Source: a virus. Taken from it: a DNA stretch of 5,731 bases. A model generated the notes under the pieces. The model was given only the letters and a program-made list of their open reading frames with translations, was not told where the DNA came from and ran no database searches. Every line of letters begins with the position of its first letter. Within the stretch, counting starts at the first letter, position 1. The position numbers and the translations under genes were made by a program. The stretch lies in IMG/VR virus record IMGVR_UViG_3300045988_001655, positions 1 through 5,731 of that record; one strand, written 5' to 3'. Below, one piece after another: positions 1 to 5,731 of the stretch.

Positions 1-99
1 ATTTTTTTTTGAAAACCTTGAATTTTTTTAGAATTATAGTACAATAGAATCACAGAAAGGAAAGGTGAATACCATGTTACACTGCTACGAAGTACGAAA
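1..99. repeat. Terminal direct repeat, left copy. Bases 1-99 are identical to 5633-5731, so the window wraps a circular genome of about 5,632 bp.
   Basis: Direct reading: a, then T9, then gaaaaccttgaatttttttagaattatagtacaatagaatcacagaaaggaaaggtgaataccatgttacactgctacgaagtacgaaa occurs at 1-99 and again at 5633-5731 (offset 5632). Confidence 0.9.
18..45 (+). promoter_or_regulatory. Sigma70-like promoter for gene 1: -35 TTGAAT (18-23), 16-nt spacer, -10 TACAAT (40-45). It is flanked by T9 and T7 runs that could act as an UP element.
   Basis: Hexamers read directly. It is followed by RBS aaggaaagg and ATG at 74. An identical copy lies at 5650-5677. Confidence 0.45.
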
Positions 100-265
100 G
101 CTTGAAGACAACGGAAAAACAACCACAATTGAAAAGTTTGTGGCAGAACCAAAAGACGCCAAAGCAAAAACAAAAGCATATGCAGAAAAACACCCGGGCT
201 TATATACGCTATACAGAGCAGAACCTGTCGAAATCTATTTTACTGAAAAAGAAAGAAGAGCTTGA
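74..265 (+). CDS. Small hypothetical protein of 63 aa. An alternative GTG start at 65 would give 66 aa. No recognised family.
   Basis: ORF track 65..265. ATG at 74 lies 9 nt after AGG of aaggaaagg, whereas GTG at 65 abuts the RBS. Same strand as all other phage genes. Confidence 0.5.
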   Translation: MLHCYEVRKLEDNGKTTTIEKFVAEPKDAKAKTKAYAEKHPGLYTLYRAEPVEIYFTEKERRA

Positions 266-290
266 CAAGCTATCCTTCCCATGATATAAC
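262..290 (+). promoter_or_regulatory. Near-consensus sigma70 promoter: -35 TTGACA (262-267), 17-nt spacer, extended -10 TGaTATAAC (282-290).
   Basis: Read directly. It overlaps the stop codon of gene 1 and is followed by a leader of about 185 nt before ATG 476. Confidence 0.55.
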
Positions 291-475
291 GCAAATAATC
301 AAACAGCACAGAAGTGTTCCTCACAAATTCATTTTTACAAAAATAACTTTAAGAAAGAGGTGAACCGCCCTGACTCTCCAAGAAATCAAAACGCTGTTTG
401 AAAACATCCAAAAAATCCTTGCCATGCTGGACAAAATCTACCATGCAGTAACAGGGAACGAACCGGAGGCTTAAC

Positions 476-703
476 ATGGAGAAAAAACTATGGAATGTAA
501 GAGACCAGACCGACGAGAACCTTATACAGGAGTTAACGAAAATCCACAGGGGAATCGACGGCGTGTACAGTATGATCAGAAAGGCCGCAACAATCGAAGA
601 CGCAAAATATTACGTTGACCTTGTGTTTCGCAAGAAGGCGGCAGCAAACGAAATTGAGATGGAAATACTCAGGAGGGACATCAACCATGGCAAAGAGGAG
701 TAA
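476..703 (+). CDS. Small hypothetical protein of 75 aa. No recognised family.
   Basis: ORF track. GGAGG (465-469) lies 6 nt upstream of ATG 476. Its 3' end overlaps the next gene by 17 nt. Confidence 0.55.
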   Translation: MEKKLWNVRDQTDENLIQELTKIHRGIDGVYSMIRKAATIEDAKYYVDLVFRKKAAANEIEMEILRRDINHGKEE

Positions 704-806
704 AGTCCGCAAATCCAAAGACGCAAAAATCTACAACAAGACAGCACGAAAAACCAAGGCCATTAACCTTGGCAGCGGCGCAATGAGAGGAGGAATCCGT
801 CTGTGA
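687..806 (+). CDS. Putative J/VP8-like small basic DNA-binding (DNA packaging) peptide, 39 aa: MAKRSKVRKSKDAKIYNKTARKTKAINLGSGAMRGGIRL.
   Basis: The internal ATG at 687 of ORF 615..806 is preceded by AGGAGGGA (671-678) with 8-nt spacing. About one-third of the residues are K/R. Microviridae encode a small basic J or ORF8 protein of about 20-40 aa that enters the capsid with the DNA. Confidence 0.5.
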   Translation: MAKRSKVRKSKDAKIYNKTARKTKAINLGSGAMRGGIRL

Positions 807-829
807 GCTCAGTATACGCAGGAGTAACA

Positions 830-901
830 ATGGCATGCCTCGCAGCAGGCTTTGTCTTCATCGTCTTCGCAATCGACATTATCAAGGAATGGTTCAAATA
901 A
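830..901 (+). CDS. Unannotated 23-aa hydrophobic mini-ORF, MACLAAGFVFIVFAIDIIKEWFK. It is a candidate single-pass membrane peptide.
   Basis: ATG 830 has AGGAG (820-824) 5 nt upstream. TAA 899-901 overlaps the SD of the next gene. The ORF fills the 105-bp gap between two genes. The hydrophobic core AAGFVFIVFAIDII is about one TM helix long. Confidence 0.3.
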   Translation: MACLAAGFVFIVFAIDIIKEWFK

Positions 902-911
902 GGAGAAAAAC

Positions 912-1148
912 ATGAACGTATACGGAATTTTCGATAACTGCGTGATGGGTTATATCGCCATCTTCACCGAACGTGACGACAAAGTGGCCGAACGTAATTT
1001 CAAAATCGCACTGACCGACGAACAAAACATCATGAGCAAGACTCCAAGCGACTATCGGCTGGAGCGACTGGCAAAATTCGACGAGAAAACGGGCCTGTTT
1101 GAAAACGAAAAGGAGAATATCTTCGATGGCGTATCGATCAGTAAGTAA
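912..1148 (+). CDS. Small hypothetical protein of 78 aa. No recognised family.
   Basis: ORF track 852..1148. The true start is probably ATG 912, which has a strong SD AAGGAG (901-906) with 5-nt spacing. The 3' end overlaps the next gene. Confidence 0.55.
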   Translation: MNVYGIFDNCVMGYIAIFTERDDKVAERNFKIALTDEQNIMSKTPSDYRLERLAKFDEKTGLFENEKENIFDGVSISK

Positions 1149-1605
1149 TTTCAGAGAGACTGCAACAGCAAAGCCCACTGAGGCCGGAGAAACCATCAGA
1201 CGGACGTATCTTTGGGAAATCAACGAAAAGGGCGAAAAGGTGCTGACGCTTGACCAGACCATTGACCAGCAGGCAGAAATCGACAGCTACCTAGAAGAGA
1301 CCAAACTGGAAAACATCCTCAGGCGGGCATCCATTGATCCTGACATTGCAGCTAGACTGGTGCCGAACATGGGTGACGGGATCCAAGACGCAACCGGGAT
1401 GCCGGAGAATCTGATGCAGCTCCAGAACATCATGCTGCGGGCCGAGCAAATCTGGGATGAAATCCCAAAGGAAATCAAGCTCAAGTTTGACAATGACGTC
1501 GATAAATTCGTGGCAAGCTTCGGAACTATCGACTGGGCAAAAAATCTGGGCATTTATCAGGAAGAGCTGCCTGAAGAGCCTAAAAAGGAGGAAGCCGCTG
1601 AATGA
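1126..1605 (+). CDS. Acidic 159-aa protein immediately upstream of the capsid gene and translationally coupled to it. Putative internal scaffolding protein (VP3-like).
   Basis: ORF track 1099..1605, where 1099 is a TTG. ATG 1126 has AAGGAG (1111-1116) 9 nt upstream. The protein is rich in E/D, consistent with gokushovirus VP3 scaffolds. The stop TGA 1603-1605 overlaps the VP1 ATG (ATGA). Assignment is by size, charge and position only. Confidence 0.4.
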   Translation: MAYRSVSNFRETATAKPTEAGETIRRTYLWEINEKGEKVLTLDQTIDQQAEIDSYLEETKLENILRRASIDPDIAARLVPNMGDGIQDATGMPENLMQLQNIMLRAEQIWDEIPKEIKLKFDNDVDKFVASFGTIDWAKNLGIYQEELPEEPKKEEAAE

Positions 1606-3269
1606 ACAGAAATAAAGACGCAGGATTCAACCAGGTGCCGCGACTGGACATCACGCGAAGCCGCTTTAAGAGGCGGCAGGACGTAAAGCTCACGCTCAAT
1701 GCTGGACAGCTCATTCCGTTCTATGTGGACGAAGTGCTACCGGGCGACACCTTCAGCATCGACCAAGCCGCAATTATCCGTATGACAACGCCTATCTTCC
1801 CAGTTATGGACAACTGCCACATGGATATCTACTACTTCAACGTACCGTGCCGTATCATCTGGGAACATTTCAAACGGTTCATGGGCGAAAACGACTCCGG
1901 GCCGTGGGCACAGACTCAGGAGTATACCATTCCGCAGGTCAAAGTAACTGGCTCAACCGACAAGCCGGCACCGTACGAGGGAAGCATCATGGACTACATG
2001 GGCATTCCTACCAAGGTGAGCAAAGGAACTGACAGTACCTTCAGCGTTAACGCACTGCCGTTCAGAGCATACGCCATGATTTGGCAAGAGTGGTTCCGCG
2101 ACCAGAACGTGGACAATCCGGCAATCAACAAAACCACAGACGAAACAGTCAACTACACTGACGATGAGACAAAGGGTATGGACGCAACAAATCCTGACCT
2201 TGAATACATCCTACAAAACGCATACACCGGCGGCAGACCGCTGCCGGTGAATAAGTACCACGACTACTTCACATCGGCTTTACCTTCCCCTCAGAAAGCG
2301 GGAGAACCTGTAAAAATCCCTCTGGGAAATACCGCAAAAATATACGGATACTACAACAGCAACCCAGGCCATAAAGCACCAATCGACGGAGACGAATTAA
2401 CCATATACAACGGAAACCGTTCGGAAATAAACAAAGCGGATAGCATCGTTGGGCAACCCTCAAACTTAACGTACGAACCACTTCAACTGAGAGCAGATCT
2501 GTCAAGTGCAACATCTACAACCATCAATCAGCTGAGACAGGCTTTCCAGGTACAAAAGTACTACGAGCAGTTAGCACGCGGTGGCAGCCGCTACCGCGAG
2601 ATGATTTACTCGCTGTTTCATACCAAAATCAGCGATAAGACGGTACAAATTCCTGAATACCTGGGCGGCACACGCATTACTATCAACATGAGTCAGGTTA
2701 TCCAGACCAGCGGCACGACCACCGATAGTCCGCAGGGCAACGCAGCAGCAATAAGTGTTACGCCGTACAACGGGAACATGTTCACCAAGAGCTTCGAAGA
2801 GCATGGCTATGTTATCGGCGTGTGCTGCATCCGGCATGACCATACCTACCAGCAGGGCTTGGAACGCATGTGGAGCCGCAAAACAAATCTGGATTTTTAC
2901 TATCCGGTCTTTGCAAACCTGGGAGAGCAGGCCATCCTGAAAAAGGAGCTGTATCTCACTGGTACGGACACCGACGAACAGGCCTTTGGTTATCAGGAAG
3001 CATGGGCAGAGTACCGAATGAAGCCAAACCGCATCAGCGGCAAGTTCCGGTCGAATGCAGAAGGAACTCTGGACAGCTGGCACTACGGCGACAACTACGA
3101 AAAGGCTCCGAGCCTGAGCCAGGCATGGATGAAAGAGGGAGATTCCGAGATTCAGAGAACTCTGGCCAAAGACAACGAACCTCAGTTTATCATGGATACC
3201 GTCATAGACAATACGTCTGTAAGACCGATGCCAATGTACAGCATTCCGGGTCTCGTAGACCATCACTAA
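1602..3269 (+). CDS. VP1: Major capsid protein (Microviridae F / gokushovirus VP1), 555 aa.
   Basis: The N-terminal region has the FNQVPRLD...[16 protein letters not shown] motif typical of microvirus capsid proteins. The size is right. The central region (about residues 190-330) is hydrophilic and variable, like the gokushovirus insertion loop. AAGGAGG lies 9 nt upstream of ATG. Confidence 0.9.
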
Positions 3270-3280
3270 GAAAGGGGGAA

Positions 3281-3309
3281 GCCCGGGGCAAAACCCCGGG
3301 CTATTTTAT
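3281..3309 (+). terminator. Rho-independent terminator/attenuator between VP1 and VP2: GCCCGGGG-caaaa-CCCCGGGC followed by tATTTTATT.
   Basis: Perfect 8-bp all-GC stem (3281-3288 and 3294-3301), 5-nt loop, then a T-rich tract. It lies immediately after the VP1 stop. Confidence 0.7.
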
Positions 3310-3310
3310 T

Positions 3311-4177
3311 ATGGCATTAGCAGCAATCGGCAGCGCACTGCTCGGAATCGGCAAACAACTACTCCCAACAATCGCCGGAGGACTCATAAACAAATTCCTG
3401 GGTGGAAACCTAATGGAAAGCAATGGAGGGAGCAGTCAGCACAACGAAAGCTCAAGCCAGGGAGGCGGCTACAGCAGCGCCGCCAGCGGCGTAAACCGAG
3501 AACAGAACCTGCAAGACTGGAACAGTATGCTAGGGGCAATTCAAAACAATATGCAAAGCCAGCAGAAGTTTAACCGTCGGAGCATGTTCGAGCAAATGGG
3601 CTATAACACCATGGCGGCAATCACTCAGGGTGTATATAACCAGATAAGCAACAACGCAGCGATGGCCTACAACAGCGCAGAAGCAGCCAAAAACAGAGCT
3701 TGGCAAGAGCAAATGAGCAATACAGCTTATCAGCGAGCTGTAGAAGACATGAAAAAAGCTGGCATCAACCCTATCTTAGCATACCAACAAGGAGGAGCAA
3801 GCACGCCAGGAGGCGCACAAGCCACTATCAGTGGGGCAAGCATGGGACTCGCAAGCAGCAGTGCAGCGAACGCAAGCGCTCTCGGAGTAAGCCAGAATCA
3901 CAACAACACATGGAGCAAAAGCGAAAGCAACTGGTACAACGCGGCACAAGCGGTTGGAGACGCTACAAGCTGGTCTCACACAAGCGCAGACAAAGCGTTT
4001 AATGCATTCAAGGACGTCTTCAATGACCTCAGCAACCTAAACGGTGGCAACGGCGGCGTTGCAAACGCCAGCCAAGGTGCCGGGAGAAAACCGAAGAAAG
4101 ATGAAATCGAATACAGACCGGGAAAAGACTTCATCGGAAGCAAAAACGTCGAATTTTGGAAAGGAAAACTTAAATAA
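3311..4177 (+). CDS. VP2: DNA pilot / minor capsid protein (microvirus H / gokushovirus VP2), 288 aa.
   Basis: Hydrophobic N-terminus [25 protein letters not shown]. It has the conserved pilot-protein block [22 protein letters not shown] and a Q/N/S/G-rich low-complexity body. The ORF-track frame 2870..4177 overlaps VP1, so the first ATG after the VP1 stop (3311) is taken as the start. Confidence 0.8.
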
Positions 4178-5197
4178 ATGGGATGCAACAAACCATTAAT
4201 CCGGTTTTATGTACCTCATGATAGAGAGGCGAGTGGGCGAGTGTACTCACTCGCCTCTTTTAACAAGATTCATGAAACCAAAATACAGTATGAAGACCTG
4301 ATGTATCGCAAAGATGTAATGATGATACCATGCGGACAATGCACAGGATGCAAACTACGCAAGCGCAAAGACTGGGCAACACGAATGGAGCTGGAAGCAT
4401 ACAGCCACGACAAGGAAAGCATCTGGTTTATCACGTTAACCTATGATGACGACCACGTACCAACACAGGACACAGAAACAGGGGAAATCTTCAAGGGAGG
4501 CGTAAACGTATGGAGAGACGCCTCAGAGCGTCCCAGAACGGTGCAAACCTTAAGCGTAGAGGATGTCCAGTTATTCATGAAAAGGCTTAGAAAGGCCGTC
4601 AGCGGGCCTCTCAGATACTTCTTGGCCGGAGAGTATGGAGACAACACCTCAAGACCACACTATCACATGATACTATACGGATGGTATCCGGACAACTTAA
4701 AGCCAATTCACAGGCTGTCAAGGTTTGGACACTACACGAGTGATAAACTGGTCAAAGTCTGGGGACAAGGGACGGTTGACATAGCCCAGGCAACGCCGGA
4801 AACGTATAACTACGTAGCTGGATATGTGACCAAGAAGCTGTACGGAAACGACAAAGACAAGTACAAGAAAATGGGACTCATACCGCCATTCTGCATAATG
4901 AGCCGAAAGCCAGGACTCGGAGACGAATGGTTCCAAAAGAACCAAGAAAGGCTATGGCAACTTGGATACATCCAGCTGACAAACGGCAAAAGAGAAGCCA
5001 TTCCAGAATATTATTGGCGAAAGCTGGAAGCTGAAAATCCTGAAAAGGCGTGGAGAATCAAGCAGTATCGACAAGAAAAAGCCATTGCATCCCTAATCGA
5101 AAGAAACATGGAAACTGACAAACGGTATGCCGAACAACTGGCCGATAAAGAAGCAATAATGAAGAAGAAGATGTCCAAAGCAAAGGGCGTTTTTTAG
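4178..5197 (+). CDS. VP4: Rolling-circle replication initiation protein (microvirus A / gokushovirus VP4), 339 aa.
   Basis: HUH-endonuclease motifs are present: motif I FITLTY, motif II HYHMILYG, motif III YNYVAGYVTKK (two catalytic tyrosines, as in the phiX174 A protein). There is an N-terminal CGQCTGCK cysteine cluster. The start abuts the VP2 stop. Confidence 0.9.
   Translation: MGCNKPLIRFYVPHDREASGRVYSLASFNKIHETKIQYEDLMYRKDVMMIPCGQCTGCKLRKRKDWATRMELEAYSHDKESIWFITLTYDDDHVPTQDTETGEIFKGGVNVWRDASERPRTVQTLSVEDVQLFMKRLRKAVSGPLRYFLAGEYGDNTSRPHYHMILYGWYPDNLKPIHRLSRFGHYTSDKLVKVWGQGTVDIAQATPETYNYVAGYVTKKLYGNDKDKYKKMGLIPPFCIMSRKPGLGDEWFQKNQERLWQLGYIQLTNGKREAIPEYYWRKLEAENPEKAWRIKQYRQEKAIASLIERNMETDKRYAEQLADKEAIMKKKMSKAKGVF
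4225..4258. other. Perfect 11-bp inverted repeat inside the 5' end of the rep gene: AGAGGCGAGTG-(12 nt)-CACTCGCCTCT. GGCGAGTG is tandemly duplicated on the left arm.
   Basis: Arms at 4225-4235 and 4248-4258 are exact reverse complements. The loop ggcgagtgtact overlaps a second GGCGAGTG copy (4236-4243), so alternative pairing is possible. Confidence 0.7.
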
Positions 5198-5206
5198 CTC
5201 TGGTGT

Positions 5207-5263
5207 CACTCAGCCAAGTAACTATCAAGTACATATACTTGGCTGAGTGTTTTTTAGTTTTTT
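5207..5263 (+). terminator. Rho-independent terminator after rep: 14-bp perfect stem CACTCAGCCAAGTA / TACTTGGCTGAGTG with a 15-nt loop, followed by TTTTTTagTTTTTT.
   Basis: Arms at 5207-5220 and 5236-5249 are exact reverse complements. T-runs at 5250-5255 and 5258-5263. Confidence 0.75.
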
Positions 5264-5267
5264 ATCA

Positions 5268-5308
5268 GCGCACGCGCACGCGCACGTAATCGCGCACGTA
5301 CACGTGCG
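5268..5308. repeat. GC-rich alternating purine-pyrimidine island. (GCGCAC)x3 is tandem (5268-5285), with a fourth copy at 5292-5297, and a palindrome CGCACGT-ac-ACGTGCG at 5293-5308.
   Basis: Read directly. Strict Pu/Py alternation over 5268-5288 (21 bp) and 5291-5308 (18 bp). The island is flanked by T-runs on both sides. Confidence 0.8.
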
Positions 5309-5331
5309 ATTTTTATTATATTATTATTTAC

Positions 5332-5352
5332 TTGTTGTAGTAGTAGTAGTAG
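5332..5352. repeat. Trinucleotide microsatellite (TTG)2(TAG)5.
   Basis: ttgttgtagtagtagtagtag read directly. TAG units at 5338-5352. Confidence 0.85.
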
Positions 5353-5356
5353 GGAG

Positions 5357-5532
5357 TGTTGAAATGTTGAAAACTATGAATATCTATCCTTGGAACGATA
5401 TTTTGTAGTCAATTTTGATGTTGATAACTTTGTGGAAAACTTGTTGAATTGTTGAAAGTGTAGCAATATGCACAAAACCATTTGTGCAACTTTTTGTGGA
5501 AAACCTGTTGAAAGTGTTGAAAGTGTTGAAAA
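5357..5532 (+). promoter_or_regulatory. Iteron array of about 10 same-orientation copies of TGTTGAAA(R) in three clusters: 5357-5373, 5419-5458 and 5495-5532. It includes two TGTGGAAAA variants (5431-5439 and 5495-5503), a 21-bp direct repeat (5428-5448 and 5492-5512, 19/21 identical), and a perfect tandem TGTTGAAAG-TGTTGAAAG-TGTTGAAAA at 5506-5532.
   Basis: Copies read directly at 5357, 5365, 5419 (TGTTGATAA), 5431, 5442 (TGTTGAAT), 5450, 5495, 5506, 5515 and 5524. Confidence 0.8.
5469..5488. repeat. Palindrome TGCACAAA-acca-TTTGTGCA centred between the two 21-bp iteron repeat units.
   Basis: 8-bp arms are exact reverse complements with a 4-nt spacer. Confidence 0.8.
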
Positions 5533-5542
5533 TGTAATTAGA

Positions 5543-5611
5543 GGCAGCTCGGCAGCTGGCCGAAAGGTTACGTCATGCTCTTCGTACGGCGCACCGCGCC
5601 TAGCGCATGAC
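5543..5611. other. GC-rich structured block: direct repeat GGCAGCT-c-GGCAGCT (5543-5557), then nested inverted repeats GTCATGC (5572-5578) / GCATGAC (5605-5611) enclosing GGCGC-acc-GCGCC (5588-5600).
   Basis: Read directly. This is the only GC-rich segment of the AT-rich intergenic region apart from the GCGCAC island. Confidence 0.6.
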
Positions 5612-5632
5612 CTTCAATGCAAAATTCGTCTA

Positions 5633-5731
5633 ATTTTTTTTTGAAAACCTTGAATTTTTTTAGAATTATAGTACAATAGAATCACAGAAAGGAAAGGTGA
5701 ATACCATGTTACACTGCTACGAAGTACGAAA
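5633..5731. repeat. Terminal direct repeat, right copy (wrap-around of the circular genome). It contains a second copy of the gene-1 promoter and the first 26 nt of gene 1 (5706..5731).
   Basis: Exact match to 1-99. ATG at 5706 corresponds to ATG at 74. Confidence 0.9.

Follow-up and report, generated by a model that had tools for sequence, protein, structure and literature searches.

Gokushoviruses are among the most abundant single-stranded DNA (ssDNA) phages in gut viromes, and to our knowledge almost nothing is known about their cis-acting signals. The window analyzed here, positions 1 to 5,731 of the virus record IMGVR_UViG_3300045988_001655 (5,731 nt), carries a perfect inverted repeat at 4225-4258, hereafter H2, inside the first codons of VP4, the Rep gene, which raises the question of whether this nucleic acid structure is itself under selection and what role it could play. 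The window holds a complete circular gokushovirus genome of 5,632 nt, bases 1-99 being an exact copy of 5633-5731 (99-nt terminal redundancy), and its nearest database relatives are uncultured gokushoviruses from faeces of human, pig and monkey. We find that H2 is a stem-loop under selection that lies within coding sequence and whose role is most likely terminator-like. Sharing its nucleotides with the code for the Rep N-terminus, it probably controls the dosage of Rep; it also offers an example of a structure whose position is held while its pairing register drifts.

Geometry, stability and selection of H2

The features that make up H2 are the following:

4178-5197, plus strand: VP4 (Rep) gene, Pfam REP_ORF2-G2P (PF23343, E = 7e-18); codons 16-28 host H2
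4225-4235, plus strand: 5' arm of H2, AGAGGCGAGTG, VP4 nt 48-58; as RNA it extends to 4223-4237
4248-4258, plus strand: 3' arm of H2, CACTCGCCTCT, VP4 nt 71-81; as RNA it extends to 4246-4260; common to the primary and the alternative stem
4228-4235 and 4236-4243, plus strand: tandem direct repeat of GGCGAGTG, copy 1 in the primary 5' arm and copy 2 in the loop, where it is the alternative 5' arm
4236-4243/4248-4255, plus strand: alternative hairpin of 8 bp with loop TACT, in the register of the sister clade; not maintained in the window clade

An initial annotation of this DNA had described a perfect 11-bp inverted repeat beginning at nt 48 of the VP4 open reading frame (ORF), and we recovered it exactly, with arms that are 100% complementary and 12 nt between them; the tandem duplication of GGCGAGTG is likewise present as described. 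The primary stem comprises 11 perfect base pairs, 7 of them G-C, and its RNA form reaches 15 bp (4223-4237/4246-4260) around a loop of 8 nt, while the peptide encoded by the region, DREASGRVYSLAS, corresponds to VP4 codons 15-27. Such a structure is rarely expected by chance: of 3,000 genomes generated by shuffling or a Markov model, 1.0-1.1% contain any perfect inverted repeat of at least 11 bp with a loop of 3-15 nt, and two are present in the real one. No other 50-nt stretch of the genome is as stable as H2 (-25.6 kcal/mol; mean -7.9, standard deviation 4.2), which has a folding z-score of -4.9 for DNA of either strand and for RNA, and 0 of 200 shuffles fold as well.

To evaluate selection on this structure we compared 58 distinct sequences of the window clade, taken from GenBank and IMG/VR and sharing 85-97% Rep identity. 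Across them, 98.3% of the cells of a 13-pair H2 stem are paired. Three pairs show changes on both sides, and all three join a third-codon position with another third-codon position, so that the changes are synonymous:

Pair 51/78 (VP4 nt): G-C 32, A-U 14, G.U 8, A.C never
Pair 54/75 (VP4 nt): G-C 51, A-U 2, other 1
Pair 57/72 (VP4 nt): U-A 36, C-G 7, C.A 11, U.G never

The covariation score was reached in 0 of 500 shuffles, a test that takes no account of relatedness among the sequences, and registers slid away from the H2 stem are only 41-67% paired. When the remainder of VP4 is used for a neighbour-joining (NJ) tree, the alternative pair states turn up in both major subclades, and the G-C state of the window at 51/78 sits amid A-T relatives, a distribution that could be blurred by recombination.

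Constraint at synonymous sites is consistent with these changes. Four-fold sites with transversion polymorphism amount to 0 of 5 in the hairpin codons against 43 of 63 elsewhere (Fisher p = 0.005), with a four-fold-site diversity of 0.133 and 0.396, respectively. Third-position diversity over H2 as a whole is only mildly low (17th percentile), the signal being confined to the four-fold sites and the covariation. TCT is invariant at S27 of the stem, though it accounts for 5 of the 92 Ser codons in the genes of this genome. As a control we used two equally strong hairpins in the VP1 coding sequence (2225-2262 and 2570-2606), which are not conserved, synonymous changes breaking them freely among 50 relatives; pervasive genome-wide structure was rejected on these grounds. 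Since these VP1 hairpins decay and the terminator that follows VP1 (see below) is conserved, the VP4 hairpin is special and not part of a genome-wide pattern.

H2 is thus a structure under purifying and compensatory selection. The proposal of the initial annotation that the nucleic acid structure itself is what is selected held up in the alignment of VP4 from relatives, which revealed compensatory stem changes and four-fold-site constraint, together with rare codons and a hairpin over the same codons in diverged clades. Its companion proposal, that the peptide is an insertion with no conserved role, did not: sequences with as little as 43% Rep identity can be aligned over VP4 codons 1-29 with no gap, and they share the conserved motif [ST]G.[VI][YM][ST]L. 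Constraints on protein and nucleic acid are superimposed at the H2 codons.

Two alternative stems had also been suggested from the duplicated arm. A second stem is indeed possible on the sequence, but it is no functional feature of the window clade, since covariation is missing from it and several relatives disrupt it (L004, L021, L026, L030, L065, L079 and L084), the same sequences that repair the primary stem by compensation. Copy 2 of GGCGAGTG diverges freely in relatives, for example in L004, L026, L065, L079 and L084. Energetically, the primary stem reaches -25.6 kcal/mol as RNA and -13.2 kcal/mol as DNA (minimum free energy form), against -14.9 and -10.1 kcal/mol for the alternative, which is weaker by 10.7 kcal/mol (RNA) and 3.1 kcal/mol (DNA) and has a pair probability of at most 0.02 at equilibrium. 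A switch between the two stems was rejected for the window clade on these grounds. One member, L008 (MG945138), carries the same G>A change in both GGCGAGTG copies, at VP4 nt 54 and 62 (GGCAAGTG GGCAAGTA), with an unchanged 3' arm; this leaves an A.C mismatch in both registers and could reflect concerted slippage or conversion, or coincidence.

Position, register and strand of the hairpin in diverged clades

At 49-55% Rep identity, clades still fold the H2 codons into a strong hairpin, though the stems differ. In the sister clade (~55% Rep identity; 59 genes, with 25 distinct sequences aligned) VP4 nt 55-66 pair with 71-82 in a stem of 12 bp around a 4-nt loop. This is the register of the alternative stem of the window, and 98.4% of the sister-clade cells are paired. 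Two pairs of this stem show changes on both sides: CGG>AGG, synonymous at Arg21, is coupled to GCC>TCC (Ala26Ser), and AGC>ACC (Ser19Thr) is coupled to CGC>CGG. The L043-like clade uses a third register, VP4 nt 47-61 with 72-86. Summing the two columns of each pair gives 129, 133 and 137 in the three clades, and the hairpin centre lies between VP4 nt 64.5 and 68.5, a shift of only about 4 nt. The hairpin has thus stayed in place while its pairing register migrated. In 8 N-terminal sequence groups the H2 segment is the most stable of the entire VP4 gene, at -19 to -29 kcal/mol against about -5.5 kcal/mol.

The identity of the folding molecule can be narrowed down from the pairs that are not Watson-Crick. 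In the window and sister clades, G.T on the plus strand accounts for 111 of these cells (79 + 32), against 16 for A.C or C.A (12 + 4). The plus strand out-folds the minus strand in 49 of 51, 18 of 18 and 24 of 25 sequences. This wobble bias and folding advantage exclude a minus-strand element or a cruciform and leave mRNA or plus-strand ssDNA. The sister clade mostly has two G.U pairs side by side, with Watson-Crick pairs only one synonymous step away, a tandem arrangement that is more typical of RNA. As DNA, H2 is still the strongest local fold: its energy lies between about -12 and -15 kcal/mol in the different clades, with a slight advantage for the plus strand. We conclude that H2 folds in the gene-sense strand, most likely in mRNA.

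H2 as a candidate attenuator of Rep expression, and other readings

The genes VP2 and VP4 abut with no intergenic space, so a terminator placed after VP2 has to lie inside VP4. The features relevant to this junction are:

4175-4180, plus strand: TAAATG, VP2 stop codon abutting the VP4 start
4179-4218 (+2 to +41), plus strand: H1, a weaker companion hairpin over the start codon, pairing its UG, immediately upstream of H2
4258-4261, plus strand: TTTT, candidate U-tract that follows the stem's last G-C pair with nothing in between
3280-3302, plus strand: canonical intrinsic terminator between VP1 and VP2, GCCCGGGGC, loop, GCCCCGGGC, then TATTTTTAT

H2 lies on the sense strand, starts 48 nt past the VP2 stop codon and has the G+C-rich stem and short loop of intrinsic terminators. 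Using a T-tail score with decaying weights, after d'Aubenton-Carafa, H2 obtains 3.13 against 3.03 for the canonical VP1 terminator, which places it in the top 0.16% of coding positions; within the VP4 of each clade the tail ranks in the top 0.1-1.2%. The tail of the sister clade reads UUUUCU, with TCT at S29 in 58 of 59 genes, a codon that makes up ~2-4% of Ser codons elsewhere in those genes. This lineage does use hairpin-plus-U terminators, the one between VP1 and VP2 being conserved in ~40 relatives (loci L216-L268) with a few compensatory stem variants. In a minority (L220, L224 and L261) an AT-rich hairpin stands in place of the VP1-VP2 terminator.

These features suggest that H2 may be a leaky intrinsic terminator, or attenuator, at the VP2/VP4 boundary that limits Rep expression, a reading that we adopt tentatively and with a little less than even confidence. 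The terminator would be written into the first 28 VP4 codons by means of synonymous and rare codons, and transcripts of the structural genes would mostly end at the U-run past the stem, at about 4259-4266. Full-length Rep would then be encoded by read-through transcripts only and be scarce relative to the capsid proteins, and H1, by pairing the start codon, would probably cut VP4 translation further. We infer from the sequence that RNA polymerase terminates at H2 and that Rep dosage is tuned in this way; control of Rep expression through RNA structure, rather than through Rep binding, is likely.

The closest known parallel is the terminator T_H of phiX174, which was mapped to 3871-4007, spanning the start of gene A at 3981, and is ~90% efficient (PMC11527146). 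It lies at the H/A boundary, less than 100 bp downstream of the promoter pA, and removes most transcription into gene A (PMC11527146). T_H, a hairpin-type terminator, shares with H2 its syntenic location, where the pilot-protein gene has ended and the Rep gene is just beginning. Unlike T_H, H2 is contained entirely within an ORF, where the same nucleotides specify a conserved peptide; it has a short U-tract that escapes a consensus scan, its termination is predicted, and no equivalent of the pA promoter was identified upstream of it. If the attenuator reading is true, gokushoviruses repeat the logic of T_H without intergenic space. This has a bearing on annotation and engineering, as rewriting rep with synonymous codons would destroy a functional element.

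Several observations weigh against termination at H2. A consensus terminator scan requiring at least 5 T in 8 nt left H2 unflagged in the window and in two sister-clade genomes; past the maximal stem only 3-4 T remain, and the T-run is partly able to pair into the stem. Some members of the sister clade interrupt the T-tract (TAT at codon 28), and the use of TTT at F28 by the window clade is unremarkable by the standards of VP4. One related clade does without H1 and H2 altogether: in the L046-like clade (~43% Rep identity, 41 unique sequences), whose Rep is homologous, the region reaches -8.5 kcal/mol against -23 to -29 kcal/mol. Termination within the ORF would, moreover, yield non-stop stub messages, and the mRNA and the plus-strand DNA have the same sequence, so that a role in ssDNA is compatible too. 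A frameshift stimulator was considered and discarded, sequence inspection giving no in-frame slippery heptamer 5-9 nt upstream of H2. In L034/L095 (IMGVR_UViG_3300022758_000056), TTT replaces TTTT after the hairpin (VP4 nt ~82-85) and shifts the VP4 frame; the missing T may be an error of sequencing or assembly, or may have been lost when the hairpin and T-run caused slippage.

The structures around the start codon also admit control of translation or message stability at the RNA level without termination, which we regard as possible but improbable. H1 would sequester the start, leaving VP4 to be translated mainly by ribosomes that finish VP2 (coupling at TAAATG), and H2, 46 nt downstream, would slow the first ribosome or lock H1 and might shield the VP2 message from 3' exonucleases. 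Small phages offer precedents in the lysis and replicase genes of MS2, where start-codon-sequestering hairpins enforce translational coupling. H1 resembles them in pairing the VP4 start directly downstream of the VP2 stop; unlike them, it comes with no evident binding protein or operator sequence, and H2 starts at +46, well beyond the footprint of the initiating ribosome. RNAalifold consensus folding predicts H1 together with H2 in the window, sister and L043-like clades, both being absent from the L046-like clade, and variation in H1 is nearly all wobble-compatible, with two pairs that switch between sister subclades, although this covariation may stem from a single subclade split. Low synonymous diversity in VP4 codons 1-12 and the plus-strand wobble bias are in line with an RNA-level role of this kind, and GTG starts and the stop-start abutment point to low, coupled VP4 translation; the T-rich tail and the rare TCT at S29 are left unexplained by it. 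A signal in gene-sense ssDNA, either a place where host primase, primosome or RNA polymerase loads to begin complementary-strand synthesis or a structure that keeps out SSB, the protein that coats ssDNA, is unlikely in our view. Such a signal is needed by every microvirus, H2 is the strongest local fold with DNA parameters too, slightly better on the plus strand, and a requirement for the stem with a free loop fits structural recognition; yet the related clade without H2 must also convert ssDNA, the dominant tandem G.T of the sister clade is more RNA-like, and the T-rich tail is again unaccounted for. The known complementary-strand origins of microviruses are, besides, intergenic and structurally more complex. 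Stable hairpins do occur in other microvirus genomes, as the n'/PriA site of phiX174, the primase site of G4 and hairpins near Rep in the reekeekee- and roodoodoo-microviruses, but these are intergenic and often have conserved loops, unlike H2 with its coding location, free loop, RNA-like wobble and terminator-like tail. The hairpins of the reekeekee- and roodoodoo-microviruses are conserved and show compensatory substitutions; their function is uncertain, a role in complementary-strand synthesis having been proposed (PMC9865509). In the lineage of the window, moreover, the packaged strand may not be the plus strand: an origin-like motif lies on the minus strand, and a skew test is uninformative.

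The initial annotation had proposed H2 as the (+)-strand origin or nick site of Rep, or as an operator through which Rep regulates itself, and this appears very unlikely. H2 does lie inside a microvirus rep gene, as does the viral-strand origin of phiX174 inside gene A; HUH enzymes often use hairpins, a site linked to its cognate Rep would survive recombination, and CATGATA abuts the stem in the window. But the H2 loops (TACT, TATT, ATGT, and others of 6, 8-12 and 10 nt) are unconserved in size and sequence beyond what the V-Y-S codons need, CATGATA varies among relatives (CACGACA, CATAACA), and the tandem repeat, which might pass for an iteron, is not conserved. Matches to CTTGATA, the phiX/pC194 nick motif, with at most one mismatch are overall at about chance frequency. 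The hairpin is also absent from the L046-like clade with its homologous Rep, and a phiX-like nick motif sits in a better candidate, a hairpin after VP4. The origin role is accordingly not supported. A broader possibility, that H2 is a replication signal inside the rep frame, acting as a complementary-strand start or as a second Rep-dependent cis element whose register migrates while its position is held, seems to us rather unlikely. The least credible reading, to which we give almost no weight, is that the palindrome has no function and arose as a side effect of the peptide sequence, of slippage that duplicated 8 nt or of haplotype linkage. Slippage could create the repeat, and the covarying columns lie within 30 nt, so they could travel as haplotypes, with shuffles that ignore relatedness. 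An 8-nt duplication would, however, shift the reading frame, so that the GGCGAGTG repeat is not a recent insertion, and a hairpin persists at one location in three clades whose pairings there are not homologous. A.C at 51/78 and T.G at 57/72 are never seen, pair states flip in both NJ subclades, four-fold sites are constrained, and the equally strong VP1 hairpins decay in the same genomes.

The hairpin downstream of VP4 and other features of the genome

The competing origin candidate consists of two parts:

5202-5249: GGTGTCAC, followed by a 14-bp hairpin, 5207-5220/5236-5249
5221-5235: loop of this hairpin, with TATCAAG at 5223-5229, which is CTTGATA on the minus strand

Among 150 distinct sequences drawn from every clade sampled (loci L001-L211), 143 carry GGTGTCA(C/G) immediately past the VP4 stop, and then a hairpin with the loop (C)TATCAAG(T/A)A. 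Its stems are clade-specific and covarying, its loop is conserved, and it folds slightly better on the minus strand. The complement of the loop, CTTGATAGG, matches the phiX174 nick site ACTTG/ATA (the slash marks the nick), with a GAC(A)CC box at phiX-like spacing, and ACTTGATA is common to the complement in the window, GTACTTGATAGTTACTTGGCTGAGTGACACC, and to the phiX174 origin as verified, CAACTTG/ATATTAATAACACTATAGACCAC. In contrast to that origin, H2 has no conserved nick motif; ACTTGATA and the GAC(A)CC box are found in the post-VP4 hairpin, on the complementary strand. In the cultured gokushoviruses Chp2, SpV4 and phiMH2K, TACTTG lies on the coding strand, in the loop of one of the five most stable hairpins:

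L213 (Chp2), ~2902-2940: TCTACTTGATC
L215 (SpV4), ~507-548: TTACTTGTTAT
L214 (phiMH2K), ~3296-3335: CCTACTTGTTGT

Relative to the genes, the orientation of the nick-like motif in the gut lineage of the window is inverted with respect to these three phages. From its sequence, the post-VP4 hairpin is likely the gokushovirus origin, on the strand opposite to the genes; this family-wide element looks like the long-missing origin of the group, inverted relative to its cultured relatives. A lineage with a phiX-like nick motif opposite to its genes may package the antisense strand, and if it does, H2 would be purely an RNA-level element. Base skew is uninformative on the packaged strand: in phiMH2K the motif is on the coding strand, yet A exceeds T there. 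The literature searched, with incomplete coverage, yielded no description of either H2 or the post-VP4 hairpin in gokushoviruses.

The plus strand of the window carries all genes, in the order VP5-like ORF, VP3, VP1, VP2 and VP4. Those upstream of VP4 with assigned products are:

1099-1605, plus strand: VP3, scaffold
1602-3269, plus strand: VP1, major capsid protein (Phage_F, E = 3e-144)
about 3296-4177, plus strand: VP2, pilot protein

Rfam gave no match at H2, its sole match in the window being a sub-threshold osmY at 4044-4112. The Rep of L045, used as query against viral contigs, had no match, and a host search in bacterial genomes returned only a probably mis-binned phage contig and distant prophages.

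Other structured or repetitive segments were observed. The clade without H1 and H2 (L133, L136, L139 and relatives) has a strong nested hairpin inside VP2, ~300 to 255 nt upstream of the VP4 start (GTGTCGGA..GTCGGCAAGTATGCCGAC..TCCGGCAC, about -25 kcal/mol). Just past the post-VP4 hairpin, short repeats of the CGCGCACG type form GC-rich hairpins in several clades, at 5268-5310 of the window and in L039, L040, L042 and L045. The non-coding stretch at 5418-5532 is rich in GTTGAAA-type repeats, with TGTTGAAAGTG and its variants at 5358-5372, 5443-5460 and 5506-5532. This stretch shares 85-89% DNA identity with gokushoviruses whose Rep is only ~55% identical, being far more conserved than the genes, and its repeats could be promoter or iteron-like elements.

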